A DNA stretch of 64,000 bases from an uncultured Parachlamydiaceae bacterium. Its GTDB lineage: Bacteria > Chlamydiota > Chlamydiia > Chlamydiales > Parachlamydiaceae. A program made the translations under genes and the position numbers. Position 1 is the stretch's first letter, and the number at the start of each line of letters is the position of its first letter. Shown here in pieces: positions 40,327 through 64,000 of this stretch. The stretch spans positions 32,001 to 96,000 of the forward strand of contig CAVVXH010000002.1 of NCBI GenBank assembly GCA_963752155.1, in the 5' to 3' direction. Below the pieces are notes generated by a model, which was not told where the DNA came from, made no database searches, and saw only the letters and a list, made by a program, of their open reading frames with translations.

Positions 40327-40336
40327 TGTTAACTCC

Positions 40337-43498: not shown

Positions 43499-43585
43499 GA
43501 AGCCTCGTTAACTCAAAAACGTTTCCTAATACGTTTACACATGGGTATTTGAGTTAATTAAGGCTATTGGATACTTGAGTAGTTT

Positions 43586-44454: not shown

Positions 44455-45314
44455 ACTAAAATCACTTCCATTATTGATCGCCAATTTGGACCGAATAAAT
44501 CTCCCTCATGCTTTATAGAAAATACCGCATAAGGTCCATTAAGTCCGATTCTTTCAGATTTGATATTAAGCCTATCACCAGGGAGAATATCAGGGCGAAG
44601 AGTGGTTTGAACGATATATCCAGTTCGAGGGCCATCCAGATAGACAGCCGCTCTCTTATCTGTATAGCGCTGAGGAATTCCGATCATGCCAGTGTCGGCA
44701 TTGATTTCTATGGCTGGTTTTGAAGTTGTTCCATATTGAGGAATGATTTGAAGCTTTCCATTTTGAACGCTCCATCTCAGACCGAGTCTTAAAACTGCTT
44801 TATCTAGGGCGTTTTTACCCATTCCAGCATATTCGAACCCTTGCTCATAAACAACATTGTCAGTAGCAGTAAACTCAGAAATAGATAGCCCAAGTTGATC
44901 GGCGATCGTTTGGACAACCTGACGGACTGGGACCTTTTCCTTGAAGCTAACGGTAATAGACTTCTGGTTAAGAATTCTTTCTCCGTCTCCGCAGTCAAGT
45001 GTAGTGACGATTTCTGGCTGATCATAGGCATGGCTGACTTGGGTGGTATTACCAATGAAAAGCAATTGTTCACCCGCGTCTTCTCGATACCCGGCGGATA
45101 AGATAACTTGGTCTCCATAATCTTTAATCCTGTTCCTATTTTCTTGACTGAGGTTCCAAATTTTTACAGATGCTGTATTGGTTGACCAGCTCAAATTCTT
45201 CTGAATAGAAAAGGAAATGCGAAGAGCTGACAGCTTAATTGAGCCAATATAGCCATTAAAAGTATTGTTTCTCAATCCAACTTCTACGGATGCTATTCGA
45301 TCAAACCTGGCCAT
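44451..45314 (-). CDS. Baseplate hub protein
   Basis: ISFSIQK..NTASVKIWNL, LSAGY, DCGDG, WSVQNGKLQI, TGMIGIP, HEGD..GPNW. Confidence 0.8.
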   Translation of the reverse strand: MARFDRIASVEVGLRNNTFNGYIGSIKLSALRISFSIQKNLSWSTNTASVKIWNLSQENRNRIKDYGDQVILSAGYREDAGEQLLFIGNTTQVSHAYDQPEIVTTLDCGDGERILNQKSITVSFKEKVPVRQVVQTIADQLGLSISEFTATDNVVYEQGFEYAGMGKNALDKAVLRLGLRWSVQNGKLQIIPQYGTTSKPAIEINADTGMIGIPQRYTDKRAAVYLDGPRTGYIVQTTLRPDILPGDRLNIKSERIGLNGPYAVFSIKHEGDLFGPNWRSIMEVILV

Positions 45315-45635
45315 TTAAGCGAACTCCCCGAGAGAATAATAGATGAGTTCAGTTACCTCGCCCATGTCTAGACGTTGAATTTTTCCTTCTCCTCCAATGA
45401 TATTTTGGCAAACGATATCTCCTGTGGGTTTGCCATCATTGACATATTGAGAGGTTAAGTTATAGTTAGCGACGACTTTTATCCCAAGAATGATGGGAAC
45501 TAAATCGCGAGTTAGAATATCCATGACCCAGTATTCATTCATTGCGTTCCATCTAAAAGATAAAACGAATGTTTTATTATCCAACTCAATTTGTTCTTGC
45601 CATTGGGCGGGTTCTTTAAAAGGAATAATTTGCAT
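45315..45635 (-). CDS. Baseplate plug-like protein
   Basis: IELD..FVLSFRWN..NEYWVMDI..GIKVV...LIY; position between the Dit-like and hub genes. Confidence 0.7.
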   Translation of the reverse strand: MQIIPFKEPAQWQEQIELDNKTFVLSFRWNAMNEYWVMDILTRDLVPIILGIKVVANYNLTSQYVNDGKPTGDIVCQNIIGGEGKIQRLDMGEVTELIYYSLGEFA

Positions 45636-46279
45636 TACACCACTCCTAAGATTAAATTTTTGCTGGCTAATACGTTAGGGAGAATCGTGGGTTGCACAGA
45701 GATCAAGGATTGCACGCCTACATTAATCCCGCTTGAGGCCTGATCTTTTAGACTATTGACAGGATCATTTTGAATCAGGGGATAATTGGCGTTGGAAGCT
45801 ACAATGTCTCGAGGAATTTTGTTTTGTACTCCACCGAAAACATTTCCTTGGTCAAGTTGCAATCTAACGCTTGTATCTATGATGAGCCTTTGTAATTCGA
45901 TTGTAAAAGTTAAAGACTGACCTGTCTTTATATCTCTGGGGACATCTAAAACGGTAATAGCCATGTTTTGATATACTTTTAAACCTGTGACCACGGTCAC
46001 AGGCTGCCTGGATTGATGAAGAGCGATGAGACGGTTAAATGCATCGATTGAGCGATTAAAAGGGGCAAAAATACTCAAAGGAGTATCTGAAACAAGGCCG
46101 ACCAACACTAAAACGTCGGGTTCGTTGATAATATGATCCGATATGATTGTTCCATCTTCAATCGGATAGTTCGTTACGCGCGAAGAGAAGCGATGCTCTT
46201 CCCGAATGGTAACATCTAGATCGATTGACCCAACTTTTGGGCTAGGATATTTTTTTCCAAATAGCAGAGATAAAACCAT
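45635..46279 (-). CDS. Dit-like baseplate/tube initiator protein
   Basis: DVTIREEH..SSRVTNYPIEDG..ISDH, VVTGLKVYQNMAI; follows the tape measure. Confidence 0.78.
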   Translation of the reverse strand: MVLSLLFGKKYPSPKVGSIDLDVTIREEHRFSSRVTNYPIEDGTIISDHIINEPDVLVLVGLVSDTPLSIFAPFNRSIDAFNRLIALHQSRQPVTVVTGLKVYQNMAITVLDVPRDIKTGQSLTFTIELQRLIIDTSVRLQLDQGNVFGGVQNKIPRDIVASNANYPLIQNDPVNSLKDQASSGINVGVQSLISVQPTILPNVLASKNLILGVV

Positions 46280-47385
46280 TACTCCACCTGAGGATTGTTG
46301 TTATAGATTTCCCTAATCTTATCTATGAAAGCATTGTCAAAAGCTTCATCGAAAGACTGGTGAATAGCGATTTGCTGCTGATCAGTCGTTCCTGGAGGAA
46401 TCTGCATATCGACTTTAGTATTGATATTGAAATTGGCTGGAAGCTTGCCTTGTTTTTGTTGTTCTATCAAGGCATTGAAAAAGAAGGCGTCTTCCTCGTC
46501 CACTTTTCTTTTAACCATATTAAGAGTTTCACCGCCGAATAATTTGGCAACTTCTTCGGTTATCGCATCCGCAATAAACGAAAAGCCCCCCTTAATTCCT
46601 TCTGTGGAAAAGACATCTGCAATCACTCCAAAGCCTTTAAAAGCATCTCCATTCAAAATCTGAGTGAATATTCCAAGAGCCTCAGTGATGGCGGGTAAGA
46701 GCTTAACTACGAAAACTTCTGTCAGTTGTGTCAGCTGATTTTTAAAAACCGCTAGATTTCGAGAATATTGACTTAGACTGGGGATTCCATCTTTCAAGGC
46801 CTTAGCATATTCGGTATGTTTTTCTGTCAGCAATCCAATGCTATCGCCGGCTGCCTTGGCGAAATCTATATATTTTTGGGCGTCTTTTTCACCAAAGAAA
46901 GCGACAGCAACCTTTAATTTATCTCGATCATTGCTGAGAGTATTAATATGCTTGAGGATGTCGATAAATAATTGATTGGCATTCTTCAATTCACCAGTGA
47001 AATTATCTCTAATTTCTATCCCTGTGTAATAAGCAATTTCTTGAAGCTGTCCCATTCCCCATTGAGCATCTTGAAGCATTTTATTCAAACCGGAAAGGGT
47101 AGCATCAAAATTGCTTGGATCAATTCTAAATTCTTCGGCAGCCTTTCTTAACTTGATAAATTCTTCGAATGAAATGCCAATACTCTTAGCGAGATCATTG
47201 GCATCCAATGTGGCATTTGCAATGTCATTGAAAAAGTCTAGGGTTTTAGCAACGAATGCAGTTGCAGCTGTTGCTGCAATAGCAAATTTTGTTTTAAAAC
47301 CTATGATTGTGCGATTAAATTGCTCAACGCCTCTTTGATCGACTTGAAAGCCTAATCTAGTGACTAATTCTCTAACGACTGTCAT
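46279..47385 (-). CDS. Tail tape measure protein (short, 368 aa)
   Basis: VVRELVTRLGFQVD N-terminus, helical composition, position right after the chaperones. Confidence 0.78.
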   Translation of the reverse strand: MTVVRELVTRLGFQVDQRGVEQFNRTIIGFKTKFAIAATAATAFVAKTLDFFNDIANATLDANDLAKSIGISFEEFIKLRKAAEEFRIDPSNFDATLSGLNKMLQDAQWGMGQLQEIAYYTGIEIRDNFTGELKNANQLFIDILKHINTLSNDRDKLKVAVAFFGEKDAQKYIDFAKAAGDSIGLLTEKHTEYAKALKDGIPSLSQYSRNLAVFKNQLTQLTEVFVVKLLPAITEALGIFTQILNGDAFKGFGVIADVFSTEGIKGGFSFIADAITEEVAKLFGGETLNMVKRKVDEEDAFFFNALIEQQKQGKLPANFNINTKVDMQIPPGTTDQQQIAIHQSFDEAFDNAFIDKIREIYNNNPQVE

Positions 47386-47641
47386 TTCTTCGACCTTTCC
47401 TTTTAGATTCTTCCATCAGGTCGAGTCGCATATCCAGCAAGGCATTTGCCCTCAACAGATCATCTAGATTCCATGTGCGCTCGATTTCCTCTAAAGAGGC
47501 TATTCCTTCTAATACTAACCGCCAGAGAAGGAACTCATCTTTTAATTCCGTATGGAGGTTTTTCTCGTATCTGGCTGACGATTCTGCGGCATCGGTGTTG
47601 CTTCCTTGAATAGGCCTCCAATACCGCTCTCCCCAAAAAAA
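47372..47641 (-). CDS. Tail assembly chaperone GT-type extension (-1 frame)
   Basis: Overlaps the chaperone in the -1 frame; WRLV..GIASLEEIERTWNLDDLLRANALLD; T TTT TTT heptamer at 47635-47641. Confidence 0.65.
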   Translation of the reverse strand, partial: FFWGERYWRPIQGSNTDAAESSARYEKNLHTELKDEFLLWRLVLEGIASLEEIERTWNLDDLLRANALLDMRLDLMEESKRKGRRNDSR

Positions 47642-48018
47642 GAACCGAAATTGCAATCTACCACGAAGGCCAAGACCTGCATCAAAGTTGGTAGATCGCC
47701 TGCAAATTCAACATCTATTACAGAATCGGTTAATTCCATTCCCTCTTTTCTGACTCCTTGGCATAGCTCAAGGACTAAACTTTCAAATGTTTTGTCATCC
47801 AATTGGGACATTAAAGATTCAATAGCTTTGACAGCTTCTCCTTTTGAAAAAGGAAGCCCGGCCATGCTTTGATCTTTGCCTCCAGGAAGGAATAATTGAG
47901 CCAAAGCAGGTCCAAAGATCCGCAAAAGCTTTGCCTTCATTCTTAAAGCTCTTCTAGCGGGTAACTGAGTACAGGTATAAACCGATCCATTGATTTGTTT
48001 TTCTCGTGTTTCAATCAT
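47542..48018 (-). CDS. Tail assembly chaperone
   Basis: INGSVY...LPARRA...FAGD...NFGSFF; lies between the tube and tape measure genes. Confidence 0.75.
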   Translation of the reverse strand: MIETREKQINGSVYTCTQLPARRALRMKAKLLRIFGPALAQLFLPGGKDQSMAGLPFSKGEAVKAIESLMSQLDDKTFESLVLELCQGVRKEGMELTDSVIDVEFAGDLPTLMQVLAFVVDCNFGSFFGESGIGGLFKEATPMPQNRQPDTRKTSIRN

Positions 48019-48452
48019 TAGACGTTTACTCCATTGCTACCAACGAAGACGTCCAGATCAACTAGATCAAGAACCCAATCGCGATTAGCTAAATCTTTAC
48101 CGAATTCAGAAGATGGATATTTCTTCACCCAGCCAGTAGCGCTGAAGTAAAGCGAATTCCCGCTCAAGTCTTTGATTAAGATAGGCACTACCCCTGCATT
48201 CGTTAACTCATCAATATTAGCAAATCCTGAAAGCACATCATTGCTAGGGCTTGATTGTTTTAAGGTTAGTGTCATACTTCCTGAGCGATTGTTACTTTTG
48301 ATACGCGTGCTTGTACCATCCGCGCCAGTAACTTTCGCCCATTGATCGTCATCTCTATCAACTGTTAAGAAAGTTCCATCAGCGAAGCCGCTCATAGGAA
48401 TCCCACCCACTGTAATAATGACCTGCTTAGGGTCATAAGTTCTTACTGACAT
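48018..48452 (-). CDS. Tail tube protein (DUF3277-like)
   Basis: TYDPKQV, GFADG, GADG, LKQSSPSN, IKDLSG; follows the sheath. Confidence 0.85.
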   Translation of the reverse strand: MSVRTYDPKQVIITVGGIPMSGFADGTFLTVDRDDDQWAKVTGADGTSTRIKSNNRSGSMTLTLKQSSPSNDVLSGFANIDELTNAGVVPILIKDLSGNSLYFSATGWVKKYPSSEFGKDLANRDWVLDLVDLDVFVGSNGVNV

Positions 48453-48469
48453 AATTATCTCCTAAGTAT

Positions 48470-50881
<2,412 letters not shown>

Positions 50882-50892
<11 letters not shown>

Positions 50893-51064
50893 CTTCTACC
50901 CCATACAACACGAGCACAGAATGAAGCTCGAAGCCTTGCTGATAATAGGTGTCATATTTGACATCGAATAACTTCCATGCATTGGCTGTCACTTCATTGA
51001 GGAAGTCATTGAGCCTGTCTTCTAACGTCATAAAAGAAGTGTCTGAAATAATTTTTGCTTTCAT
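50882..51064 (-). CDS. Small hypothetical protein
   Basis: 60 aa, AAGGA RBS, LEDRLNDFL...DVKY...SVLVLY; overlaps the next gene. Confidence 0.55.
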
Positions 51065-51081
51065 GGTTTTTCAATTCCTTT

Positions 51082-51438
51082 TTATTGTCCTTCGAGCCTT
51101 AAAACTAAGTATTTATAATGGTTTACCAGCCCCATTGCTGGTGCGTTTTGCCATGGAAAAACCTGAACCACTTCAAAAGTTTTTCCGAAGAAAAGAACAA
51201 GGTCGGGATTTACACTTGTGACCGTATTGATGAGGGTTGAAGTAAAAAGCTTATAGCCTTCTGAATCTCTTCTTGCCTCTGGCAGCTCCTGCATTTCTTC
51301 ACCCTTCATGGGCTGGATGCTGGAAGTTATTTGAGTATCTGTGTAAGCGCCATCAATCCAGCGCCCATTCGTATAACCTCCGCTTTGAAAGCGACGAAGT
51401 ATTACTGGAGAGCGAAAGATTTCAAATGGCGATGTCAT
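51082..51438 (-). CDS. Head closure/head-tail adaptor
   Basis: GGYTNGRW, SIQP..LPEARR, DLV.F.GKTFEV...W...HYK; neck-module position. Confidence 0.7.
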   Translation of the reverse strand: MTSPFEIFRSPVILRRFQSGGYTNGRWIDGAYTDTQITSSIQPMKGEEMQELPEARRDSEGYKLFTSTLINTVTSVNPDLVLFFGKTFEVVQVFPWQNAPAMGLVNHYKYLVLRLEGQ

Positions 51439-51917
51439 TTGAGTACCACCTTATAGCGCACTGACTGCACCATCTGACCGAAGTCAATTAAAGGTTTGGA
51501 GCTTTTTTTAATAGCGATAGTCCTTGGAGAATTGGGAGGGGAAACAATTGCACGGATTTTTTGAACAATTAGTTTTGTCATTAGCTGTCCTATCAATCCT
51601 AACGATTTTTCTGTTGTTCTTTTACCGTCCAAAATTTTAGTGTATTCGCCCTGTATCGCCTTGTTTATTAATGCCTTGTTCTCATCAAAGCTTGTAGACA
51701 TAAAGGGTCTGGCTGGAATTGTATTCGTCCCGAATTCATTCCCTGCTGCTATTTGAGGAATTGAAAGTCCAGCAGTTTGCTTCCGCTGTCCTTTTACCTG
51801 TGTCTTTGTGGCGGTTCCCTCTTGAAAACCGACCTTGACGTAGGAGCCATCGAGCAAAGCAATTTGCCGTTGGATTTCATCAAATCCTAGATCCTTATCC
51901 TTGACAACAGCACGCAT
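51435..51917 (-). CDS. Neck/tail completion protein (HK97 gp10-like)
   Basis: VKVG, NEFGT..IPARPFM, PPNSPRTI..K.SSKPLID.G. Confidence 0.78.
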   Translation of the reverse strand: MRAVVKDKDLGFDEIQRQIALLDGSYVKVGFQEGTATKTQVKGQRKQTAGLSIPQIAAGNEFGTNTIPARPFMSTSFDENKALINKAIQGEYTKILDGKRTTEKSLGLIGQLMTKLIVQKIRAIVSPPNSPRTIAIKKSSKPLIDFGQMVQSVRYKVVLK

Positions 51918-52308
51918 TGATCACCGCAAAATTAGGGGGTAAATTCGTTACAGTTGAACCGATGACGGTTCGTTTGATCAAATCTTTGTACAACCTGCCA
52001 TATTGGGTGGCATTCAGGATGGAAGAATCGGGCGAGATTGCAAGCCCAATGGACAGTTCTCCCTCGCTGAGATTAGTAGCCACTCCTGTTTGAGGACTGG
52101 TTTGCAATTGAAGCCAATGAGCCAAAAGATAGACGTAAGCTAGCACGCCGCAGCAAGATAAGACCTGTTCATTGACTTGGCATCTCAACAAACCAATCAT
52201 GGTATTGTAGTTAGCCAACTTCGTTGGATCGGTCGTATAGAACTGCGGTGCAATAACGAATAACGTATCAATTATCGTTTGACTTGGTATTGGATCCGAA
52301 ATGCTCAT
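51895..52308 (-). CDS. Head-tail connector (DUF4054-like)
   Basis: APQF, LLAHWL, SEGELSI, TQYGRLY; start placed at 52308. Confidence 0.75.
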   Translation of the reverse strand: MSISDPIPSQTIIDTLFVIAPQFYTTDPTKLANYNTMIGLLRCQVNEQVLSCCGVLAYVYLLAHWLQLQTSPQTGVATNLSEGELSIGLAISPDSSILNATQYGRLYKDLIKRTVIGSTVTNLPPNFAVINACCCQG

Positions 52309-52651
52309 TTTCCTCTTCCTCCGCTTGATGAGAAATTTTATGAAGCTGTTTTTTAGCTGCATCTACGACTTTGTCACGGCCATCTTCATCGATAATTCGA
52401 GTCAGATAGGCGTGGTCATAAATTTGAGGGATGAGTTTCATCATCTCCTTAACAGACTTCTTGCCATCCGCTTCCTTGTCTGAAGATTCGGGAATAATCA
52501 CGATGATCCCTTCTTCGACCCTATGTTGAAATAAAGGGTGAAGGAGGAGGGCTTTGAGTTCGCCCTCCGGAATCTCATTGATCCCTGGCATCAGGCGGCT
52601 GGTGAAGTTACAATAGTAGACGTTCTTACCGTTGTACTTGACTAAAGCCAT
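52268..52651 (-). CDS. Hypothetical head-associated protein
   Basis: LMPGINEI motif; starts at the capsid gene stop. Confidence 0.6.
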   Translation of the reverse strand: MALVKYNGKNVYYCNFTSRLMPGINEIPEGELKALLLHPLFQHRVEEGIIVIIPESSDKEADGKKSVKEMMKLIPQIYDHAYLTRIIDEDGRDKVVDAAKKQLHKISHQAEEEENEHFGSNTKSNDN

Positions 52652-53580
52652 TAGATTCCCTCCCCGATCGACAGTGAAAGTGGATAATAGATGATGATCC
52701 CGCCGTAACGAGATTCGCAGTTTACGATGAACTCAAGGCCACGTTCTTGAGGTGGATATTGAGTAAATGGCATTGGAATCTCCATCGTGAGCTTATCAGG
52801 GTTCTTCTCATAAGCGATCATGATGTCAACACCGCCAGGGCCTGCACCCTTCAATTCTGGAACCCAGTCCACAGTTGTGATGAACGGATTATTTTGAATA
52901 AAATATTCCAAAATCGTCGTATCGCTGTTAGCGGAACGAGGAGTTGAAGAGATCAACGTGTATTGATCGATAGGAAGAATCAACGTGTTAGGCATTTCAA
53001 CCCCATTTGTGAGGCCTACAATACCGTTGGACAATTGATTCATATCGCGCAAGATTTGATCAGGTGTTTTATTGACCCAAAGTGTAGAAGCGCCTGTACC
53101 ATCTGCAGGAACAGAAGCTGCTGGAATGTTTGGGTTATTAGTCAGACCAAGGATGTTGGAACCATTATCTCCAAACCAGGCAAGCTTATTCACCTTTTGG
53201 TCATTGGCTCTTCGAGTGGCGTTTGCCTGACGTTGTGTAAGACTTCTGCCTACAAACATCGCGGCTCTAATTTCCTGCATCGAATACCCATAGCTGGCTC
53301 CAATGGATTTCACTGGAGTGATGAATTCCTTACCGCGAATATCGCAACGAGGGAAGTCATCGGCATAGCTCGAAATGATTCGTGCAAGACCTGTTTCTTC
53401 AAACGATTGGTAAGTGATCGATTCCGCACCCGCACCAGCTTCTGTGCTAACAGGAATTAGCTTGATCGCTTTTAGCGGAGGGAATTCAATGTCGTACGAC
53501 TTTGATTTTATGGACTCGAGCTCACGAGCAAAGAACGCAGTCTCTGCCGAGTCGAGATTAACGCTTACAATTCTATCCAT
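52651..53580 (-). CDS. Major capsid protein (DUF2184/HK97-like)
   Basis: FFARELE, YGYSMQEIRAA, AWFGD..GLTNNPN, PNTLILP, RYGGIIIYYP. Confidence 0.9.
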   Translation of the reverse strand: MDRIVSVNLDSAETAFFARELESIKSKSYDIEFPPLKAIKLIPVSTEAGAGAESITYQSFEETGLARIISSYADDFPRCDIRGKEFITPVKSIGASYGYSMQEIRAAMFVGRSLTQRQANATRRANDQKVNKLAWFGDNGSNILGLTNNPNIPAASVPADGTGASTLWVNKTPDQILRDMNQLSNGIVGLTNGVEMPNTLILPIDQYTLISSTPRSANSDTTILEYFIQNNPFITTVDWVPELKGAGPGGVDIMIAYEKNPDKLTMEIPMPFTQYPPQERGLEFIVNCESRYGGIIIYYPLSLSIGEGI

Positions 53581-53592
53581 TTTACCTTCTCC

Positions 53593-54375
53593 TTAGTTCG
53601 GCAAGTTGATTTCTAATGTTGCAAGAGCACCAGCTGTAGCTCCAACGGTGTACCTTGCAGTTGGAAGGGCGATTGCACGGCCCCCATCTGAGTCCGCACG
53701 GAATCCACCAGGAAGCAGAAGACCATTAGCGGCAAATCTCCAGTACACTGGGCTGTCGCTTGTTAGGTTTTGTTCAGCTGCAACATAGATACGGCCTCGA
53801 GTGAGGAGAGATACGCAATCTCCTTGGAAATAAATCGGATTCCCAAATGATCCGAGCGGATTCAATGGGTTCGGTTTATTTTGAGTTCTTGCGCCTACTC
53901 CGTAGAATGTATCTTGAGTGGTGTTTGTTATAGTTGCGGTGGCTTGCGATGCGCCGGCTGTGACTACGAATGAGTTAACGACGGCGACACTTCCCTCTGT
54001 GGCTTTCACTGTGAGGGTATGGTTGCTTGGATCGCTCACGGCTGCAGAAGCAATGTGAGGTTGAGCCAAGATCGCAGCTGCAATGGCATTCATTGTGGCT
54101 AGACTGGAAACCGCAAACGTGATGGGTGCTAACGCTACCCCATTGACGCTGACATTGATCACGTTGCTCGTGACAAGGTCGGCACTTATGACAATGGTTG
54201 ATAGATTAGACTGGGGGAGGCGGACTACGTAATCTTGACCGATTACTTTTGCAAGTCCGAGCCCTATATTAAAATTCTCAAATGCTATAGGAGAAAGGAC
54301 GTTTTTAAAGCCGGAATCGGCTAAAAGACCTACGCTCCCGACATCCATTAAAAAGGGATAGCTTAGTTGTGGCAT
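53593..54375 (-). CDS. Head decoration/cement protein with inserted domain
   Basis: Lies between scaffold and capsid; GDCVSLLTRGRIYV...VYWRF...GGFR. Confidence 0.75.
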   Translation of the reverse strand: MPQLSYPFLMDVGSVGLLADSGFKNVLSPIAFENFNIGLGLAKVIGQDYVVRLPQSNLSTIVISADLVTSNVINVSVNGVALAPITFAVSSLATMNAIAAAILAQPHIASAAVSDPSNHTLTVKATEGSVAVVNSFVVTAGASQATATITNTTQDTFYGVGARTQNKPNPLNPLGSFGNPIYFQGDCVSLLTRGRIYVAAEQNLTSDSPVYWRFAANGLLLPGGFRADSDGGRAIALPTARYTVGATAGALATLEINLPN

Positions 54376-55655
54376 GGTATTTTACCTCCGGGCTTGTAAC
54401 CATTTTTCATCTTGTCGATCATTGCCTGGCGAGCCATGGCGGAATCAGCAGGTTGATGATCGAACTTAGTTCTGTATTCAACTGGAGTTGCAATGACTTG
54501 AGATGGGGCAGGGGTCATATCTTCGAGCAGAGCATCAAATCTCGCTTGAATATAGACTGCAGTTTTTCCATCTAAATTTACGTTCTTTTGGCGAGCCTTG
54601 ATGACTTCCTTTTTGATTTCCAGATCGGACATATCATCAATTCTAGCTAAGGTTTTAGAGTCCAAGACACTCTCTGCAACTTTTTGCAGTTTGACCCGCT
54701 CTTTAACCAGAGATCTGATAGATGCGGCGTCCATATTGTTGTATTTGTCGTTCTCTCTTTTTTCCTTGTCTTGTGGCTTTAAGGGAACGCGTTCTCCATT
54801 GGGAGCTTTGACAGGAGTTTCATGGGTTGCATAAGGATTTTCCTTAGACATGTAACCCACTTCTTTTTCTTCCTTTTCTTCTGCTTCGTCTTCCTCTTCT
54901 TTGAGGTCGACATCCCCATTTTTTATTGAATTAAGTTCAGCAGAAAGCTTGTCTTTTTCTTCAGCTATTCTGCTATTTTCTGCTTCGAGATTTGCGATGC
55001 GGGCAAGCAGCTGCTCAACTTGATTAGCTACATTGTCCTCCATCAAAATCTCGTCATCGTCAATTTTGACTTTCCTTTTAGCCATATTGGCCTCCTCTAT
55101 TAAGATTTCTTCTGCATCGAAACTATCTAATGCGATTCTTGCCTCGTTGCCTGCTCTGGCATTGTCAACAATGCTTAAGTGGTTGTATTTGATATTGGAT
55201 TGACGGAAGTTATAAGGCTGGCCGTTGTAGCTTCCTTCTTCCGGGATGAGATCGACGGTGTAACCGAGAGATAGTTCTCTACGGTTTTTGTCAGTAACGT
55301 CTTTAACGCTTGCAAGATCTGTAATTACTAAATTTGAAAGGACAAACTCACCGTCTTGGGTAATTGTTTCCCCTGTATAGCCAATGGCAAGACGCTTGGC
55401 ATTTTCAGCCGAGACAAGGCGTTCTTGAGGATGCCCATTTGTCACAGGAATCATTTTCATGGTGTCCAGACTGTCTATTTTAAAAACTTCGTCAGGATGA
55501 CGCAGTTCTTTGCGAATAGTTCCATCTGGGTTTTTATAGAGAAAAACACCCGTGCGGGTGACTATGGCATTGGCTTTGATGTACCCTTCATCTGTAATGA
55601 AGGCATCGCCTTTGACTTGTCCTCTATCAAAACGAGCAACATCATTTAATTTCAT
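54363..55655 (-). CDS. Prohead protease/scaffold (DUF2213)
   Basis: TDEGY, RTGVFLY, PVTNGHP, RELSLGY, NHLSIVDNARAG; acidic coiled-coil C-terminus. Confidence 0.9.
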   Translation of the reverse strand: MKLNDVARFDRGQVKGDAFITDEGYIKANAIVTRTGVFLYKNPDGTIRKELRHPDEVFKIDSLDTMKMIPVTNGHPQERLVSAENAKRLAIGYTGETITQDGEFVLSNLVITDLASVKDVTDKNRRELSLGYTVDLIPEEGSYNGQPYNFRQSNIKYNHLSIVDNARAGNEARIALDSFDAEEILIEEANMAKRKVKIDDDEILMEDNVANQVEQLLARIANLEAENSRIAEEKDKLSAELNSIKNGDVDLKEEEDEAEEKEEKEVGYMSKENPYATHETPVKAPNGERVPLKPQDKEKRENDKYNNMDAASIRSLVKERVKLQKVAESVLDSKTLARIDDMSDLEIKKEVIKARQKNVNLDGKTAVYIQARFDALLEDMTPAPSQVIATPVEYRTKFDHQPADSAMARQAMIDKMKNGYKPGGKIPCHN

Positions 55656-55792
55656 TTCTCTACCCAAAAATCAAAATGTTAAAATCACAACTTTTTCAAC
55701 TCGAATAAGTTGGTTAACTGGTTAGCTGGAGGTTGGGTAGAGGTGTATGGATTACTGGAAATCTTATTGGTTGGATAGATGATTGGTTGAGT

Positions 55793-56646
55793 CTAGATAT
55801 CTAAGAGTCCTTCTAAAACTGGAACAGCGACACATCGGCAATTTATATCAGTTCCCGGATGGCCAGTATCTTTCGGTGGATTATCCCAACGAAATTTCTT
55901 ACCATCATGGGCTTTGTGGGTAGAACGAACTCTTTCATCGCCTGCCGTTTGCCAGATGTATTCTTCGACACCTAATTCTTGCTGCCTAAGTTTTGTTAAA
56001 CTCGCATTCAATTTGGATGTCTGATCTCTCGCGATTAATTTCGCGCGCCGTCTAGTAATTCCGAATCTTTCTTGGATTGATTGAGTCATTGAGTGAAATC
56101 TGCTTCCTTCCTGCAAGCCCCTCTCGATGATCTGTGCGACCTGCTCGAGTTCTTGCTGCTGGAAGAGAGCGGATTAATTGAGCATTTTGGCTTCCGAACA
56201 ATTTTAACTGGTCTTGCAAGCCAAGGCTGGTCGATAAAAATATCAATCCCGAAAACGGAATTATTGATTCTATCGAACTGCCTTTTATTGTATCTGGCGA
56301 CTTGTACGCCAATTATTTTTGATTCCGCTATGGTTTCTTCAACTTTACCCTTTATAGCGTGTATTACAGAATTTATCAATCTTTTTAATGCATCAGAAAA
56401 ATCATCGCCCCTGGCCGGAGATGTTGGATAGAGCTGTTCCACCTCTAAAATCAGAGAGGGGAGTGCTGGGATAACGATTTCTTTGATAAGGTTTTTTAAT
56501 TCGTTTGTTAGAGAGAAAAGCACTCTCATATATTCTCTTTCCAGAGAAGATGGCGGATGCCATTTAGGAGGTTTTTTCATCTTTGCTGTTTGAAGCTTCC
56601 CCATGCGCCTCTGTTTAATTTTAGCAAGCTGATCAATAGAAACCAT
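55793..56646 (-). CDS. Minor head protein (Mu gpF/SPP1 gp7-like), split by two +1 frameshifts
   Basis: RAKLIARDQ, YIWQTAGDERVR..H, PG.DINCRC; three ORF pieces join if single bases at ~56220 and ~56158 are removed. Confidence 0.82.
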
Positions 56647-56648
56647 GG

Positions 56649-58107
56649 TTATACCTGTGAGCGATATCTGATTCCTGTAGGCATAAAATCAGGCCCAATG
56701 CCTGGAGGAGGGGTTTCTTGTGCTTTTTTCTCTTTTTCTAATTCAGCCACTTCTTCTGGATCAAAACCATTTTTACGGCCTTCAAGATCCACTTCAGTAT
56801 TCATAGACCAACGGTTGCCACCGAAACGAGAAACAGCCACTTCAGCAGGATCAAGAACTCCTCTGTCGAGATAAATGGCGTCTGTTTCCGCGACGATTTT
56901 TCTGACGATGGCTTCTTGTTCTTCGGTGTTTTGCCATAAGGGGACAAATTGGATGGACCAGTTGTCCGGTTCGATTGCCAGTGAAGGATCCATTTTTAGA
57001 GAGCATGATGTAGCGAGTAAGCTTTTCAAGGACTGGTTTAAGCTTGGATTCTTGTTCTTGCTTAACCATATCGTAAAAATTTCTGACATCGTTATCTCCA
57101 GTGGAGTTCATTCCGGCGGCGCTTCTTCCAAAAAGGAGGGATACTGGAATACCAGAGACCGCAGATAGAGCTAGCATAAAACGATCGAGAAGCTCAGGGA
57201 TGCCAGAGATGTTGGTTGAGGCTTTTTCATATTTCTCCTCTGCATCCAATATCATCGTATTGGTTGCGCCTTTGGTTAAATTGAGAATATCAAGCCGTTT
57301 CATGACCTGATTGTCAGCACATTGTGAAGCGATTAATTCCGCGAGATTGGGAATGGAAAGAGTGTAATTGACGAAGTCTTGCATGATAAGCCCTGCATTA
57401 GCAAAGGCCGTGGAGTAGTTACGAAGCTCATCGTAGATTGATTGAATAAGGGGATCGCCCCAACCATTATTGAAATTTTGCTGCCTTGGAGGCAGTATAG
57501 ACCAGTCTACACGTAGAATTCGTGAATGATGTACATAGAATAGAGCTCCTGTGCGAGTGTCATTGACCGTATAGACATTTGGATAGCCATAATTCGGGCT
57601 ATTCAGATCCTTTTCGAAAGTCCCATCTCTGCTGAAAGATTGATAGCGATCGAATACATGGAGCCATTTTATATCCCTAATATTTCTCTCGTCGACAGGC
57701 TCTTCAAGAGGTAAGCCATCGGCAATTCCCATCACGCAAAGAGCACCTCCATACAATCTGGCCCACCGAAGCAGAGTGATCAAATTGAAGTTGGCTTTGA
57801 TGGATTCCATTTTACGATTGATGTCTTGTCCTGAATCGCCCTCGATTTCCCATCCTTGCCTGACCATTTCGGATGGTACAATATCCATGATTCGGCGAGT
57901 GACGCCGTCAGATCGATACAATTGATCCAGTTCGGCTTGTTCGAATATTTTCTCCAGGCGAAAGTGAGCATTGACGTTCTTATCGCGCCCTCGCATGCCA
58001 AGCCCTGTCAGGACATTTATCCATCCATCAGTTTTGACAAATCCGTCATTATGAGGGACGCGACTTTGTTCTTCAGCGGATTTTTTCTCAAAATTATACG
58101 TACCCAT
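56649..58107 (-). CDS. Portal protein (DUF1073-like), split by one +1 frameshift
   Basis: DGW.NVLTGLG, ARLYGG, VHHSRIL, SGIPVSLLFG.S..GMN, YD; continues into F.PLWQ..E.E after removing one base at ~56975. Confidence 0.88.
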
Positions 58108-58318
58108 ATTCTCCCAAGATTTAGAAACTTCGATGATCTTTGCTTCTTTGGGAAATTGGGTATTAACGGCGAATAGAGTGCCGTTTTTGAGTAGATGGGT
58201 CTTGATTTAAGCAAATACTCTAAAAAAAGAGAGAATTGCTTAAAATTAATTTATCACAAGAATAAAAAAAATGATGCACAAAATTTCTTTTTCAGCATTT
58301 TTGTCGAATTCGAGCTTC

Positions 58319-59191
58319 TCAATTTTCGCTTCCAAGTAGTCCGGTATTTAATCGCAGCCAATCGTTAATCGTAGCTATAACTTGAGCAACAATTATTGGT
58401 AGATTATCAGAATTTTCTGCACGTAAATTTTTTAAATACTCGCTCCAATAATTTTGCACTTGTTTCATTTCATCCTCGGCATAAGTAATCGGCAAAGCAA
58501 GAGGGGTTTCTCGATGCTCAAATACCAAGCGTATAACTCCTTCTAGATTATGAAATGAGGGCAATTGTGAGGAAGATATCATAGAATAAAGGTCGTGAAA
58601 ATCTTTCATGCGGCTATTGAATGAGCCTCGATGGATAATGGTTTCTAACTTTTCAGCAAAAATAAATTCCTTGGGATAACAAGATAGCTTTACATTGCTT
58701 TCAAAAAGGACTCCTTTAGAATAGGCTGTAAGTGGAATCGAATATTCAACAGCATCGACAATATCTCCAAAGCCAATATCGATAGCAACTTTAAATCTAG
58801 TTTTTCCAAAATAGGCCATCATGGACACTTCAGCTCCTGGATATCCCATATGCGGATGTGTAAGTTCGCTTACCTTAATTTCTTGAAAGGCAAATCCATC
58901 TTTGAGGTCAATGTTTGCAATTTCCTCAAAAATATCTTTCAATCCAGCAACTTCATTACTGATCTTGCGTGCAAGAAAATCTAAATCATTTGTTTCTCTC
59001 CCAATTTCGATATATTTGGAGAGAAGAATACCACCTTTTAAGACAAAATGCTTACGATGTTTCGAATTAGCTAAACGTACTAGAAAGCGCTCCAGTGTGA
59101 GATTTTGCCAAAGATCGGCGGGATCTCGATTTTTTTCTTTTGCGATAGCTCGCAGTTTTGCTTTGAATGATTTTTCTAAATCTGATGTCAT
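58319..59191 (-). CDS. abiEii: Type IV TA toxin, AbiEii-family nucleotidyltransferase
   Basis: LERFLVRL, FVLKGG, RETNDLDF, IDIGFGD, AEKLE, NSRMKDFHD. Confidence 0.9.
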   Translation of the reverse strand: MTSDLEKSFKAKLRAIAKEKNRDPADLWQNLTLERFLVRLANSKHRKHFVLKGGILLSKYIEIGRETNDLDFLARKISNEVAGLKDIFEEIANIDLKDGFAFQEIKVSELTHPHMGYPGAEVSMMAYFGKTRFKVAIDIGFGDIVDAVEYSIPLTAYSKGVLFESNVKLSCYPKEFIFAEKLETIIHRGSFNSRMKDFHDLYSMISSSQLPSFHNLEGVIRLVFEHRETPLALPITYAEDEMKQVQNYWSEYLKNLRAENSDNLPIIVAQVIATINDWLRLNTGLLGSEN

Positions 59192-59783
59192 GTTGTATAT
59201 GATAAAATGTATGGGGTTATGTTAACACGCAATGTCTTTGCATATGCGCCTAATTTCTTAGGGTCTGGCTTGTATTTAGTGCTTTGAAAATATCTCTGAA
59301 TTGCTTTTATTGCAATTTCCTTGCTCAGATAGCGAAATGCATCAACAACGCAACGTTCTCTATCAAAAATGTGGACGTTATATTCACCAAGCGTCAATTT
59401 CGATTTTCCCTAGTTTAACATTGCGCATTCTAATGATTCTTGTATTTGGCCGCTTGGGAGGATAGGATTCGTGCGGTACAGCAATCCAAACTTCTCGCAT
59501 AATTTGATCCGTCAAATCATAGTAACAAAGCGCAGAAATTAAACAAATGACCCCATCGGGAATACTAACTGCGACTAATGCCAAGTTTTCCCACTGAAAT
59601 TCAACTTCTGGTTCATATTGAGAGAAGCGATAAGCTCCTGGATAAATCCTTTCTAAGGTGCCTCTTTTTACTAAATAAGCCAGAGCATGCCTAGGGACAT
59701 CCTGTTTTTCTGCCTCTGCTGATGTAAAAAGAGGGACATTGGATAAACGGCTCTAATTGTTTTAAGTACTTTGATTGTCTCAT
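59188..59783 (-). CDS. abiEi: Type IV TA antitoxin AbiEi, split by two +1 frameshifts
   Basis: Reconstructed MRQSKYLKQLEP/LSNVPLFTSAEA..LERIYPGAY..GVICLISAL.YYDLTDQI/..DRERCVVDAFRY; shifts at ~59746 and ~59398. Confidence 0.82.
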
Positions 59784-59797
59784 TCCTTAATTCTACA

Positions 59798-59830
59798 AAA
59801 CCTGCCCAATTAAGTCAAGTGGGTAGGTTT
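59798..59830. promoter_or_regulatory. Inverted repeat upstream of abiEi (candidate autoregulatory operator)
   Basis: AAACCTGCCCA / TGGGTAGGTTT (10/11). AbiEi proteins are known to repress through promoter IRs. Confidence 0.5.
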
Positions 59831-59940: not shown

Positions 59941-60387
59941 ATGACCGCAAAAGCTCATTCAGAATTCTCGTATCCTGAGGAAAGTCCAGGATTTTTGCTT
60001 TGGCAGGTTTCTAACCTTTGGCAGAAATTACAACGAAAAGCGTTATCGCAATTGAATTTAACACATGTGCAATTTGCACTGTTATCTGGAATAGGTTGCT
60101 TAGAAACTAAACAAGGGACAGTTAATCAAACGGATTTAAGTAAACATGTAGGGGCAGATGTCATGATGACTTCACAGGTTCTTCGCACGCTCGAAACAAA
60201 AGGATTAGTGGAGAGACATCGTGAGCCATCTGATCCTCGAGCCTTTTCTCTTTCTCTTACAGAGGAGGGAAGAAGCGTAACAAAAAAGGCCGTGAAAATT
60301 GTTGAAAATGTTGATGCTGACTTTTTTCAAAAAGTCCTGAAAAACAAAGCAGCATTAATAAATTTATTGAAAGAGCTGACAGGCTAA
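59941..60387 (+). CDS. MarR-family transcriptional regulator
   Basis: SPGFLLWQV, LTHVQF, SQVLRTLETKGLVER, DPRAFSLSLTEEG. Confidence 0.9.
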   Translation: MTAKAHSEFSYPEESPGFLLWQVSNLWQKLQRKALSQLNLTHVQFALLSGIGCLETKQGTVNQTDLSKHVGADVMMTSQVLRTLETKGLVERHREPSDPRAFSLSLTEEGRSVTKKAVKIVENVDADFFQKVLKNKAALINLLKELTG

Positions 60388-60735
60388 ATAAAAAATTAGA
60401 GGATTTAAATGAATTTTAACAGGAGATTTATTGCTCATTTTTAGGGGACGATGCCTAAAGATCGGTGAGTCTAAAATTACACATATCAGCGGAAGGTGGC
60501 TTCAAGGCCGCCTTACAGTGGCCAATACAAACAGGAAAATTGGCAGAGGTTCGGATTTAAGGATGAAATGAAAGCCTTAATGAAGCTGGAGCTGAAAGTA
60601 ATCGCAAACCCTAAAGGAACAGCGGTGAATTTGTCACTAGTTTAGATAAGCCCGATGACTGTGTATAACAGTAAGACCTAAACGGAACCCTACTTTCTTG
60701 ATGCGTTGTTTAAACAAATTCAAGAAGGGTAGGAA

Positions 60736-61052
60736 ATGAGCAAAAAAGATGAAAACGTACATTTTGTTTGTGCAATTTGTCATCAAAACGTGTTGCCATT
60801 GCAAAATGGAAGCTACCGAAATCATTGTCCCTTTTGCTTAGATCCATTCATGTGGACAACAAGCCTGGAGACAGAAGTAGTTCATGTAAAGGTGTGATGA
60901 TTGCTTGTCGACTGATTTATAATGGAAAAAAAGGTTGGCAGATCGTCCATAAATGCCAGCAATGTGGCATTGAAAAAGTAAATAAAATTGCAGATGGGTA
61001 TGTGCAACCCGATGATTGGCAAATCCTCATACGATTAAGCCAACAAATCTGA
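60736..61052 (+). CDS. RNHCP-domain zinc-binding protein (one-base deletion frameshift)
   Basis: MSKKDENVHFVCAIC..GSYRNHCPFC/LRSIHVDNKPGDR...HKCQQCG; shift at ~60840. Confidence 0.8.
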
Positions 61053-61061
61053 AACCCATGA

Positions 61062-61601
61062 ATGAGATGCGTAATGAATGATCAAAATACACTGATTTTG
61101 CAGATTCTCCGAGAGGAGGATCTATCAGAAATTATTAACACATTCAATTTTCCATGGACATCGCTTCAAGCGACCAAAGAAAAGTGGGAGCGTTATTATG
61201 CGGAGCAGCAAAGAAATGCTCGCACGGTTTATATAGCAAAAATTCAAGATGAGTTTGTTGGCTATGGTAGCTTACTGAGCATTTCAGAGTATCCAAATTT
61301 CAGGAATGACGGCATTCCGGAAATCCATGATGTCTGGGTTTCGGAGGAACATCGAGGAAATGGAATTGGCAAGAGATTGGTCCAATATTTAGAGAAACTA
61401 GCTCAACAAGAAAATCACAAGCAGATTGGGATTGGAGTTGGTCTTTATCAAGACTATGGGCGTGCTCAGAAATTGTATGTGCATCTTGGATATGCTCCAG
61501 ATGGTCTAGGTGTAACATATAAATATCAGTCTGTAGTGCCTGGAGAGCCTTATCCATTGGACGATGACCTCGTTATATGGCTTAAGAAGGATTTATCATG
61601 A
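61062..61601 (+). CDS. GNAT-family acetyltransferase
   Basis: EIHDVWV..EHRGNGIG, IGIGVGLYQDYGRAQKLYVHLGY.PDG. Confidence 0.88.
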   Translation: MRCVMNDQNTLILQILREEDLSEIINTFNFPWTSLQATKEKWERYYAEQQRNARTVYIAKIQDEFVGYGSLLSISEYPNFRNDGIPEIHDVWVSEEHRGNGIGKRLVQYLEKLAQQENHKQIGIGVGLYQDYGRAQKLYVHLGYAPDGLGVTYKYQSVVPGEPYPLDDDLVIWLKKDLS

Positions 61602-62036
61602 ATAAGATAAAAGACAGCGACTATCATTTTGAGTATCAGGAAGAGCCAATTCAGGAAGATGAACAAGTCCTCTTTGAAGGGATTACTGATGAAGCTGTGC
61701 TCGAAAAAGAAAATGGATCGAATAACCCCATTCGGGATTTTTATTAAAGACTCTCATGGAGTTGTTCTTGGAGGCGTCAATGGATTTTCATGTTATGGTT
61801 GTCTCTATGTCGACATGCTTTGGTTGAAGGATGAGCTACGCAAACAAGGCCTCGGGAAGAAATTAATGACGGAAGCCGAAAAAATCGGTTATGAACGACG
61901 ATGCACATTTTCAACAGTTGATACAATGGATTGGGAGGCCCTCTCATTCTATCAAAATCTTGGCTATAGCATCGAATTCGTTCGAAAAGGTTTTGAGAAG
62001 GAATCCAAGATGTACATGTTAAGGAAAGAACTATGA
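61598..62036 (+). CDS. GNAT-family acetyltransferase (one +1 frameshift)
   Basis: LYVDMLWLKDELRKQGLG, TMDWEALSFYQNLGY; the N-terminus MNKIKDSDY joins at ~61703. Confidence 0.8.
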
Positions 62037-63796
62037 GCACGGTCAATATTCGATCCGAAATTCACCAAATTGTTTCTGCAATAAGGTCTTTAGATAGTTT
62101 GGAGGATCAGCATATTCGTTTTGTGCTTGATTGGATCGAATCTGGAAATGAAATTTTTCGAATAGAAAAACCAGCGACGCCAGATACTCACTTGGTTGCT
62201 TATTTTGTCATTGCCTCACCAGGAATGGATCAGATTTTGTTAGTGGACCATAAAAAGGCAGAACTATGGCTCCCACCTGGTGGACATGTGGATCCAGGAG
62301 AGGATCCAAAAGAAACTGTCAGAAGAGAAGCTAAAGAGGAGCTTGGAATTGACGCTGAATTTTTGTCTGATGAACCCCTTTTGCTGACTGTGACCAAGAC
62401 AGTAGGAAATGTTGCCAAACATACAGATGTATCTCTTTGGTATCTACTCAAAGGTGATCCAAGTCAAGTATTGGATTACGATCCGAATGAGTTTCATCGA
62501 ATTCATTGGTTTGGGATCGACGAGATCCCATTTGAGAAATCTGATCCTCACATGAAACGTTTCATTGAGAAAATGCTACGGGATCAGACTTGGAAATCCT
62601 ATGAGTCTTCTGCATTCGATTATGCTAAAAATGTTGAGGACTTACATCCGCATAAGGAAGCTGAAAGATTTCTATCGTTGATTCCATCTGGAGGAACCAT
62701 CATTGATATTGGATGCGGATCAGGGAGAGATGCAAATAAATTTTCTGAAAGAGGATTTCATGTTACGGGAATCGATTTTTCTCCAAGCATGATTGAGATT
62801 GCAAGAAGCAACGCACCTAAAGCCACTTTCAAGATTATCGATATGCAATCATTGAATTTAAGAGATACTTTTGATGCTGCTTGGGCAAATGCTTCTCTCT
62901 TGCATATTCCGAAAATTCACTTTCCAAAAGTTTTAGAAAATATTTGTAGCATACTGAATGACAATGGGTTGTTTTATATCAAAATGAAACAGGGGAGTCA
63001 TGAAGGGATTGAGATAGATACTCGCTATGACAATCTCCCAAAATTCTATTCCTATTTTGAAGAAAATGAGTTGAAGCAACTGTTGACTGAATCTGGATTT
63101 GATCTTCTAGATGTATTTAAGACAGGAAAGGAATCGTCATATCAAACACATCCATACGTTCACGCCTTTTGTAAAAAGGTCTCCGTAAATTTACAAAGGA
63201 AACCATGTGATTGTATGAAAGAGTCCCTGCAAATTATTTACCTCAATGGACCTTCAAGCTCTGGTAAGACAACTCTTGCAAAGGCTATCCAAAAAGAATT
63301 TGATTTGCCATTTCTACATGTTGGAATCGACCGAGTGATTGGTATGATGCCGGAGAAACTAAATAATTGGGAAGGAGAGCCAGCCCCACTAGGTTTTAGT
63401 TGGAAAGAATCTGTTGATGAGACTGGACATCTTGTTCATGAAATCCAGACAGGTCCATTTGCCAGAAAAATTGCTCAAACCTTAGTGGAAATCGTCTTAA
63501 CGATGGCAAGAATGGAACATTACATAATCATAGATGATGTTTCTTTTGGAAAGTGTCAAGTAGACATATGGAAAGATGCTTTGAAGGACTATAAAACCAT
63601 TTGGATAGGCCTTAAAGCCCCATTAGACATTTTAGAGAAAAGAGAGAAAGAGAGAGGCAATCGCATGCACGGTTCAGCGCGTGCCCAATATTTTCAGGTT
63701 CACAAAGACGTCATCTACGATCATGAATTCGACACCAGTAAAGATTCATTGGAAACCATCTTCAATGCTATCAAGGAGCGTTATGTCAGAAAATAA
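62033..63796 (+). CDS. NUDIX hydrolase / SAM methyltransferase / chloramphenicol phosphotransferase-like kinase fusion
   Basis: Nudix box GGHVDPGEDPKETVRREAKEELG; IIDIGCGSG and WANASLLH; YLNGPSSSGKTT, IIDDV, REKERGNRMHG. Confidence 0.85.
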   Translation: MSTVNIRSEIHQIVSAIRSLDSLEDQHIRFVLDWIESGNEIFRIEKPATPDTHLVAYFVIASPGMDQILLVDHKKAELWLPPGGHVDPGEDPKETVRREAKEELGIDAEFLSDEPLLLTVTKTVGNVAKHTDVSLWYLLKGDPSQVLDYDPNEFHRIHWFGIDEIPFEKSDPHMKRFIEKMLRDQTWKSYESSAFDYAKNVEDLHPHKEAERFLSLIPSGGTIIDIGCGSGRDANKFSERGFHVTGIDFSPSMIEIARSNAPKATFKIIDMQSLNLRDTFDAAWANASLLHIPKIHFPKVLENICSILNDNGLFYIKMKQGSHEGIEIDTRYDNLPKFYSYFEENELKQLLTESGFDLLDVFKTGKESSYQTHPYVHAFCKKVSVNLQRKPCDCMKESLQIIYLNGPSSSGKTTLAKAIQKEFDLPFLHVGIDRVIGMMPEKLNNWEGEPAPLGFSWKESVDETGHLVHEIQTGPFARKIAQTLVEIVLTMARMEHYIIIDDVSFGKCQVDIWKDALKDYKTIWIGLKAPLDILEKREKERGNRMHGSARAQYFQVHKDVIYDHEFDTSKDSLETIFNAIKERYVRK

Positions 63797-64000
63797 ATTG
63801 AGTAAGCATATCGTAGTCCTGCCATACAATCCTGATTGGCCGAAGATATTTGAGGCAGAATCGCAGAAAATAAAAAATGCCTTAGGTGACAATTGTATAG
63901 CTATTCATCATATTGGTTCCACGTCTGTGCCAGATCTTTCTGCGAAACCGGTCATTGATATGATTTTGGTAATAAAAGATCCAGAAAAGGTCACTCAACA
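63783..64000 (+). CDS. GrpB (UPF0157) family nucleotidyltransferase-fold protein, partial
   Basis: My translation: MSENKLSKHIVVLPYNPDWPKIFEAE...IHHIGSTSVPDLSAKPVIDM; runs off the window end. Confidence 0.85.
   Translation, partial: MSENKLSKHIVVLPYNPDWPKIFEAESQKIKNALGDNCIAIHHIGSTSVPDLSAKPVIDMILVIKDPEKVTQ

Follow-up and report, generated by a model that had tools for sequence, protein, structure and literature searches.

A myovirus head and tail module with a distant terminase in a Parachlamydiaceae genome: the probable left third of a trapped phage-plasmid of the pCS family

A 64,000-nucleotide stretch from an uncultured Parachlamydiaceae bacterium (assembly GCA_963752155.1, contig CAVVXH010000002.1, positions 32,001 to 96,000; hereafter the window) encodes a complete Pam3/E217-type myovirus head and tail module on the minus strand at 35.9–58.1 kb. 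Upstream of the portal gene lie an AT-rich gap and an AbiE toxin-antitoxin (TA) pair, where a first-pass annotation had expected the terminase. Does this module lack packaging genes, or are they encoded elsewhere? The window is best read as the left third of a chromosomally trapped chlamydial phage-plasmid of the pCS family, in which a cargo bay displaces the terminase from the portal (probability about 0.85). The apparent lack of terminase, recombinase and replication genes is an effect of the window edge. The genome, here G000, is a 3.13-Mb assembly of 22 contigs and is 80% complete. The window is C2:32,001-96,000, and a window coordinate equals the C2 coordinate minus 32,000.

Terminase, integrase, lysis and replication families matched none of 43 window open reading frames (ORFs) in Pfam or 38 in PHROGs, the sole exception being a secondary PHROG "endolysin" match on a tail gene. 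This candidate (phrog_1517, E 9e-13, at 45,635-46,279) was rejected because Dit-like and tail matches are far stronger (E 5e-31 and 3e-35); the gene encodes Dit and not a lysin. The first-pass annotation had likewise recognised no such ORF in 33.7–64 kb. That holds for the domain searches, except that this interval contains the first 41 codons of parA (33,704-33,825, minus strand; NF041546, E 4e-14). Its account of the region before the portal (ORF start 58,107, minus strand), a gap of ~210 bp followed by abiEii and abiEi, was accurate: the gap measures 211 bp and has a GC content of 0.318, versus 0.428 in the virion module and 0.384 in the genome.

The packaging and replication genes were found beyond the window. 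A whole-genome search returned a single TerL above the family cut-off, at C2:116,380-117,730, on the same contig and strand as the portal and 26.3 kb upstream of it (PF03237, E 1e-24; PF17289, E 2e-17; TIGR01630 above cut-off). For Terminase_3 (PF04466), the sole match, a weak one in a GNAT gene (E 0.08), was rejected. Cargo continues from the window to C2:112.3 kb. The portal–terL interval comprises 22 kb of cargo (GNATs, APH-family kinases, NUDIX, a beta-lactamase-family gene, Ada and DUF1016) and a Pgp7/8-type recombinase ~22 kb upstream of the portal. Beyond terL, the methyltransferase and DUF1064 lie another 22 kb of cargo and then a phage early module. The primase-helicase/ParA replicon is 66–70 kb upstream of the portal, with a primase-DnaB fusion and ParA at C2:156-159.7 kb and a rep candidate that has no family match. 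terL, recombinase, primase-helicase and ParA are all on C2, on the same strand. The element carries virion-structure and DNA-packaging genes, with terS assigned by position only, and plasmid replication and partition genes, with parA split in this copy. By gene content it appears phage-plasmid-like. The suggestion at first pass that packaging genes sit elsewhere on the element was borne out. The genes it listed as missing are missing from the window and not from the element, apart from lysis: its counter-case, a terminase, replication and lysis module past 64 kb, was found in its first two parts, and a lysis gene is unrecognisable element-wide.

The element spans 93,961 bp (C2:65,704-159,664) and is collinear with the circular Criblamydia plasmid pCS (NZ_LK031773), with 90–95% nucleotide identity over long backbone blocks (BLASTN). 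Most backbone proteins are 88–100% identical to those of pCS, and cargo differs in three bays. Opening the pCS circle at pCS 62,573-62,575, within parA, gives the element ends at C2:65,704 and 159,664. The flanks are two parts of one host gene, which resumes at C2:159.66 kb. A 1028-aa paralog on contig C6 aligns over aa 63–304 with the left flank (72%) and over aa 301–1023 with C2:159,654-161,813 (36%), and the junction overlap is 3 bp. The paralog was used as the comparison since an empty integration site was not found in genomes G001 or G002. No att-type direct repeats were found at the element ends; the longest word common to the junction regions is 8 bp, and the putative recombinase site is 46–48 kb from either end. 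These junctions suggest that the element entered the host gene by illegitimate crossover inside its own parA. Because the crossover lies in parA, away from the lox-like site, this chromosomal copy is probably trapped and unable to excise. An extrachromosomal circular state is seen for pCS and for five contigs with terminal overlaps, and not for this integrated copy. It is very unlikely that the assembler mis-joined an episome into the chromosome contig. Close relatives are circular and the assembly is rich in indels, but both junctions fit one crossover that splits parA and the host gene cleanly, and a common 8-bp repeat is too short to mislead an assembler.

A split terL–portal layout is a trait of the pCS-like family. 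The two genes are 3.5–26.3 kb apart in 10 of 10 elements holding both, always with the recombinase between them, and are separated in all 8 chlamydial-clade loci with both genes (two loci are possibly the same element, and one has no recombinase). Backbone order is constant across the mapped elements, and here too the recombinase, a lox-like site and a cargo bay lie between terL and portal. In the gene-order comparison proposed at first pass, the genes are adjacent in 22 of 22 more distant viral contigs holding both. Five of these (G417–G421, IMG/VR) are free Pam3/E217-like myoviruses of 41–44 kb that are 98–100% complete by CheckV, one having terminal repeats. They share the element's phage backbone and its order of early, methyltransferase, terminase, head and tail modules. 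Their capsid (71–77% identity), TerL (66–77%), tape measure length (348–365 aa) and lack of a recognisable lysin resemble those of the element; unlike it, they have terL abutting the portal and no recombinase, lox-like site, rep/DnaB/ParA replicon or cargo bays. Of 17 element sequences, 16 have an inverted-repeat site with a 6-bp spacer upstream of the recombinase; none of the 5 free phages has one. An O/DnaD-like initiator was matched in 3 of 4 free-phage candidates scanned; pCS has only about 250 bp at that place.

The portal side of the split has a conserved feature of its own. A motif is located 92–154 bp ahead of the portal start in all of 13 elements, as counted without a shuffle control; here it is inside the AT-rich gap (about 58,258-58,251, minus strand). 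It would likely act as a promoter, which the portal operon would need once cut off from terL; alternatively, it may be a dif-like site. A sigma70 scan gave fewer sites than shuffles and did not flag this motif. A sigma70-like site upstream of abiEi (59,818-59,790) has 10 of 12 matches, in a scan that overall gave no excess over shuffles.

The AbiE pair is variable cargo, not a terminase replacement, and is the first gene pair of the 22-kb cargo bay. It forms an abiEi-abiEii operon with a toxin of the nucleotidyltransferase family (PF08843), and its antitoxin pieces are 84–87% identical to pCS AbiEi. The toxin is 81% identical to the copy that pCS carries close to its portal. Of 11 elements, 8 have one or more AbiE pairs and 3 have none. 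The type seen here occupies the portal bay in three elements (pCS, G000 and G034) and another bay in two (G148 and G049), and a second type is beside terL in 6 of 11. AbiE directly adjoins the portal gap in G000 only. In locus L012, neighbouring cargo genes are 58–97% identical and there is no AbiE at that place. The placement of AbiE in the terminase position was correct by location and misleading as to role. AbiE dN/dS is 0.07–0.18 in unsaturated pairs, and the pair could plausibly stabilise the element. Cargo is highly mosaic among elements. An integron-like cassette array was considered and rejected: no recurring intergenic repeat was present among the families shown (at most the five largest per region, each region searched separately) in four regions spanning C2:89.5-152 kb, and there is just one lox-like site. 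Next to the portal, pCS has a small ORF (pCS 87,258-87,626) whose 40 codons at the 3′ end recur at 11 places in G000 and in several cargo bays, probably as the terminus of a mobile cassette.

Purifying selection acts on the virion and terminase genes. Pooled dN/dS for 20 virion genes is 0.03–0.08 in 7 of 8 pairs, the eighth being saturated, and TerL dN/dS is 0.02–0.03 in two unsaturated pairs (against pCS and against G148). These values are the outcome of the dN/dS check proposed by the first-pass annotation, which had also described 35.8–55.7 kb as free of stops and frameshifts; none are seen there against pCS.

Gene transfer agents (GTAs) and extracellular contractile injection systems also have intact, selected particle genes in the chromosome and a short tape measure. 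On one reading, the window holds a head and tail module without a terminase, in which AbiE has taken the place of terL and which the host maintains for GTA-like or protein-delivery particles. In favour of this idea, no terL lies within 26 kb of the portal, the head and tail genes are intact and selected, and no lysis gene is recognisable. This idea is now extremely improbable, since a conserved TerL is present on a self-replicating element with a patchy distribution in the phylum and a varying AbiE position. GTAs have no replication module of their own and are fixed and vertically inherited within a host clade, unlike this element with its own replicon, terminase and patchy horizontal distribution. 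Injection systems and tailocins have no capsid, portal or terminase, and all three are present here. The short tape measure as a GTA-like reduction was also rejected because free relatives are equally short (348–365 aa versus 368 aa here). The proposal of a plasmid-maintained module was right for the family, whose relatives are circular episomes.

The best candidate for a terminase-less element is relative G034. Its contig C3 (80,697 bp) has intact head, tail, replicon and recombinase genes and no terL, terS, methyltransferase or DUF1064, and terL and methyltransferase had no match anywhere in that 99% complete genome. The contig ends exactly at the expected terminase-module site and has no terminal overlap, so a gap is indistinguishable from a deletion. 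A terL-less sub-lineage was rejected: G498 and G510 give identical matches and look like one fragmented assembly, in which the contig ends ~400 bp downstream of the methyltransferase. G509 and G512 offer a short contig or a portal fragment only.

Nine frameshifts are present in the element backbone: two each in gpF and abiEi and one each in portal, terL, terS, methyltransferase and rep. The shifts all belong to a single kind, six are seen against pCS alone, and there are no in-frame stops in the element backbone. If the shifts were real, the element would be a dead, decaying prophage remnant. This is rather unlikely. The split of parA is genuine and some chromosomal relatives are partial: G158 and G241 copies have lost the capsid gene, and contig C12 of G000 holds a small remnant. 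However, the host background shows 24 shifts, mostly of the same kind, in 88 genes (36,809 aa) tested with same-genus proteins, of which a few calls may stem from paralogs or antisense ORFs. This rate, ~one per 4.6 kb of coding sequence, predicts 8.7 shifts per 40 kb versus 9 seen. TA pairs in general also argue against decay, as an intact abiEii should do harm if the abiEi next to it were truly broken. Both gpF shifts are absent in 8 of 8 compared relatives that align there. Contigs of four unrelated sequencing runs are without the gpF shifts in 4 of 4 and 3 of 4 cases and without the portal shift in 4 of 4. Assembly error is the likeliest cause of the element frameshifts, and other pseudogene calls from the G000 assembly need caution. 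Further frameshift examples in G000 are at C2:190.9 kb (a putA-like gene) and C10:232-234 kb. Public metagenome runs contain 0.34–0.53 of the words of window 52–60 kb, and four cover head genes; their source habitats are mostly anaerobic digester, groundwater, hot spring, aquaculture, freshwater and wastewater. In RNA runs the share is 0.14 or less.

In a sample of 400 phylum genomes, 13 from 5 families have TerL at ≥88% identity, and G049 adds a sixth family. For three families, the last being the host's own, the capsid gene is present in 3 of 103, 2 of 129 and 4 of 72 other genomes; neither of the two same-genus genomes (99% and 85% complete) gave a capsid match. Five contigs of 70–96 kb (G137, G305, G174, G007:C52 and G148) have terminal overlaps of 55–77 bp. 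One of them, G148:C4 (70,193 bp), lacks the whole early module and keeps head, tail and terminase genes mostly 92–100% identical to pCS. Chromosomal remnants at G158:C1 about 801-848 kb and G241:C2 about 1,652-1,661 kb keep the recombinase and terminase. The remnant at G000:C12:79.7-89.2 kb has an RHH gene, the one lox-like site on that contig, a terS fragment (90%) and an AAA ATPase.

No relaxase or type IV secretion families were matched among 114 element ORFs scanned, a set that included all but a few cargo ORFs, and pCS is typed as non-mobilizable. Since virion genes are under selection and the searches gave no conjugation genes, the family probably spreads between chlamydial families in virions. 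Two further TerL sequences at 72–74% identity, in chlamydial bins (G027:C424 and G189:C3), are at the free-phage identity level, and G421 has a 45% match to a small early gene; both hint that some free phages also infect chlamydiae. Upstream of terS, free phages G418, G420 and G421 have queuine tRNA-ribosyltransferase-like genes, and G420 and G421 have glucosyltransferase-like genes, which suggests DNA modification. No such genes were seen among the element ORFs scanned.

Lysis families PF00959 and PF01510 had no match in any of 11 genomes or records, among them the five free phages, and positive controls matched. PF05838 (GH108) also matched 0 of 11, but its positive control gave no match. 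There were no PHROG lysis matches among 54 selected free-phage ORFs. Because the five free phages also have no lysozyme or amidase match, the lack of a recognisable lysis gene looks family-wide and not like a local deletion.

Head size bears on how such an element could be packaged. Five of seven closed or complete elements are 89.5–96.4 kb despite differing cargo, which would fit an enlarged head of about 100 kb. In a size-cap test, slot 1 and slot 2 sizes gave r = -0.53 (p = 0.28, n = 6), which is not significant; without G007 the result is suggestive (r = -0.93, permutation 0.067). A tentative alternative is that the particle is too small for the replicon and takes ~45-kb headfuls, transducing plasmid parts and, when integrated, flanking chromosome. 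The nearest free relatives are 41–44 kb, match the elements in their set of head genes and have a tape measure about as short, and cargo is mosaic. Of five solved capsid relatives, three have entries with 7 chains, which suggests T=7. Against sub-genomic packaging stand the clustered element sizes, although the size-cap test is only suggestive, and the ability of one capsid protein to build several head sizes, as in P1. At a similarly low probability, a lysin-less phage-plasmid may have outgrown an ancestral head of ~45 kb, with headful plasmid pieces moving between cells that share an inclusion or amoeba and being rebuilt by its own exonuclease/RecT. Were this so, the trapped copy would package flanking chromosome in place, a GTA-like outcome would arise via genome overgrowth and not terminase loss, and genetically intractable chlamydiae would have a natural gene-delivery route.

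Several points weigh against a phage-plasmid of the pCS family. The nine frameshifts in this copy, terL and portal included, could be real, and 35.8–55.7 kb has 0 frameshifts where about 4 are expected (P about 0.013). G148 is without the early module and G034 without a detectable terL. Most relatives are metagenome bins whose host assignment may be wrong, although pCS is from an isolate. An endolysin or holin is not recognisable in the element or its five free relatives, and genomes of 70–98 kb exceed the 41–44 kb of the nearest free phages.

The following history is proposed from what was observed directly, namely gene content, gene order, junctions, selection and distribution. The pCS family would descend from a 41–44-kb Pam3/E217-like myovirus with terL abutting the portal, this direction being our preferred one. 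A first plasmid module, the Pgp7/8 recombinase with its lox/dif-like site, would have been added between terL and portal, and a second, rep/primase-helicase/ParA, next to the tail genes, where the O/DnaD-like initiator of free phages is not seen. Cargo bays may then have grown beside both modules, leaving the portal operon with a conserved upstream motif that is probably its own promoter. AbiE pairs would come and go at bay edges and probably aid plasmid maintenance or phage exclusion. Circular episomes are probably resolved from dimers by the recombinase at its single site, and relatives probably spread between chlamydial families in virions. This copy would have recombined into the host gene via a 3-bp overlap in its own parA and is probably trapped. 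Features are listed in Table 1.

Table 1. Features of the window (window coordinates) and of the element beyond it (C2 coordinates)
Feature	Position	Strand	Basis or remarks
Host gene 5′ part (ankyrin/patatin/NB-ARC type), interrupted by element	32937..33703	+	C6 paralog alignment, domain matches
Element left end: parA first 41 codons, cut by putative integration crossover	33704..33825	-	100% to pCS ParA aa 1-41
Small Arc/RHH-like regulator and APH-family phosphotransferase; cargo slot beside parA	33989..35135	+	
Contractile tail module, frameshift-free: Gly-rich fibres, baseplate, spike, hub, Dit, 368-aa tape measure, chaperone, tube, DUF3383 sheath, terminator, collar, neck	35866..51917	-	Pfam/PHROG matches to Pam3/E217/KPP10-type families; 94–100% aa identity to pCS
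Head genes: adaptor, major capsid (PF09950), cement, DUF2213 protease/scaffold	51895..55667	-	Pfam, PHROG; major capsid 100% to pCS
gpF/Mu-F minor head gene, three reading frames in this assembly	55793..56646	-	
Portal gene, two reading frames in this assembly	56649..58107	-	PF06381; pCS version 485 aa
AT-rich gap (211 bp), portal-side backbone edge	58108..58318		pCS homology ends 58,256
abiEii, type IV TA toxin (nucleotidyltransferase), intact, cargo	58319..59191	-	PF08843 E 1.5e-35
abiEi antitoxin, three reading frames	about 59188..59783	-	Two tblastn pieces, 84–87% to annotated pCS AbiEi
Start of 22-kb cargo bay: MarR, RNHCP, GNATs, NUDIX-methyltransferase, GrpB	59941..64000	+	
Pgp7/8-type tyrosine recombinase	C2:112,330-113,313	-	50% identity to Chlamydia pGP8-D
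Single lox/dif-like site	C2:113,503-113,526		Beside recombinase
terL, terS-position gene, ParB-methyltransferase, DUF1064	C2:116,380-120,023	-	
terS-position gene	C2:117.7-118.2 kb	-	Position only; no family match
Phage early module	C2:142.0-150.3 kb		
rep candidate, primase-DnaB, 168-aa ORF, parA 3′ part (right end)	C2:154,482-159,664	-	

Two further features were noted. An intergenic inverted repeat with arms of ~60 bp, found by eye, lies at window about 32,600-32,755, just left of the interrupted host gene. A fibre-like gene at C2:142,283-143,026 is in the early module, distant from the tail genes (compare window 37,976-38,644), and free phages carry several long fibre/decoration genes at the same early-module position.

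The closest known system is pCS itself (Criblamydia sequanensis CRIB-18 plasmid 1, NZ_LK031773.1, 89,524 bp). It has the same backbone and order, an identical capsid and a 97.6% identical recombinase. Its portal is 25.7 kb away from terL and has an AbiE pair close by, and an APH gene again adjoins parA. Whereas this copy is integrated via parA and has GNAT/APH/NUDIX cargo and one AbiE pair, pCS exists as a circular episome carrying two AbiE pairs and metal and arsenic cargo. pCS was published with phage-origin proteins at 7% as the sole phage statement (Bertelli 2014, PMC4208316). In the available text of PMC4791399, plasmid pRm2 has 20 phage proteins and 48 ORFs in common with pCS. A chlamydial plasmid "phage group" with terminase and tail genes comprises C. 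sequanensis and P./R. massiliensis plasmids, according to the accessible parts of the reports (Koestlbacher 2021, PMC7846284; PMC4791399). There, whole-plasmid transfer between families was inferred, Pgp7/8 and ParA/Pgp5 are core genes, and the phage group is treated as a putative prophage on two plasmids (PMC7846284). Absent from those accounts, as far as their available text goes, are a complete selected myovirus gene set in six families, free 41–44-kb relatives and the split terL–portal layout. Isolated chlamydial phages are named as Chlamydiamicrovirus in the text available (PMC5010888), and unclassified viruses are predicted to infect Chlamydiales in that of PMC12644861. No description of a tailed phage-plasmid of Chlamydiae was found in a literature search with little coverage of subscription journals, and the available main text of Pfeifer 2021, as distinct from its supplementary list, makes no mention of "Chlamyd" or "Criblamydia" (PMC7969092).

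An intact member is available in culture, in the isolate C. sequanensis CRIB-18, which makes virion production, head size and lysin-less exit directly testable. Virions, if shown, would explain the cross-family transfer of plasmids without conjugation genes that was inferred in the consulted text of Koestlbacher 2021. The family is of moderate specialist interest, carried by the head-size and lysis questions. From the available description of P1-type phage-plasmids (Pfeifer 2021, PMC7969092), the element is unlike them in being known from genes alone, in having no recognisable lysis gene and in its obligate intracellular host. It is like them in combining structural and packaging genes with partition and replication genes, in its resolvase with a single lox-like site, and in its conserved phage core with variable accessory genes. 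By these genes, the locus would add to a known plasmid family a new member that is trapped in the chromosome and P1-like in content.

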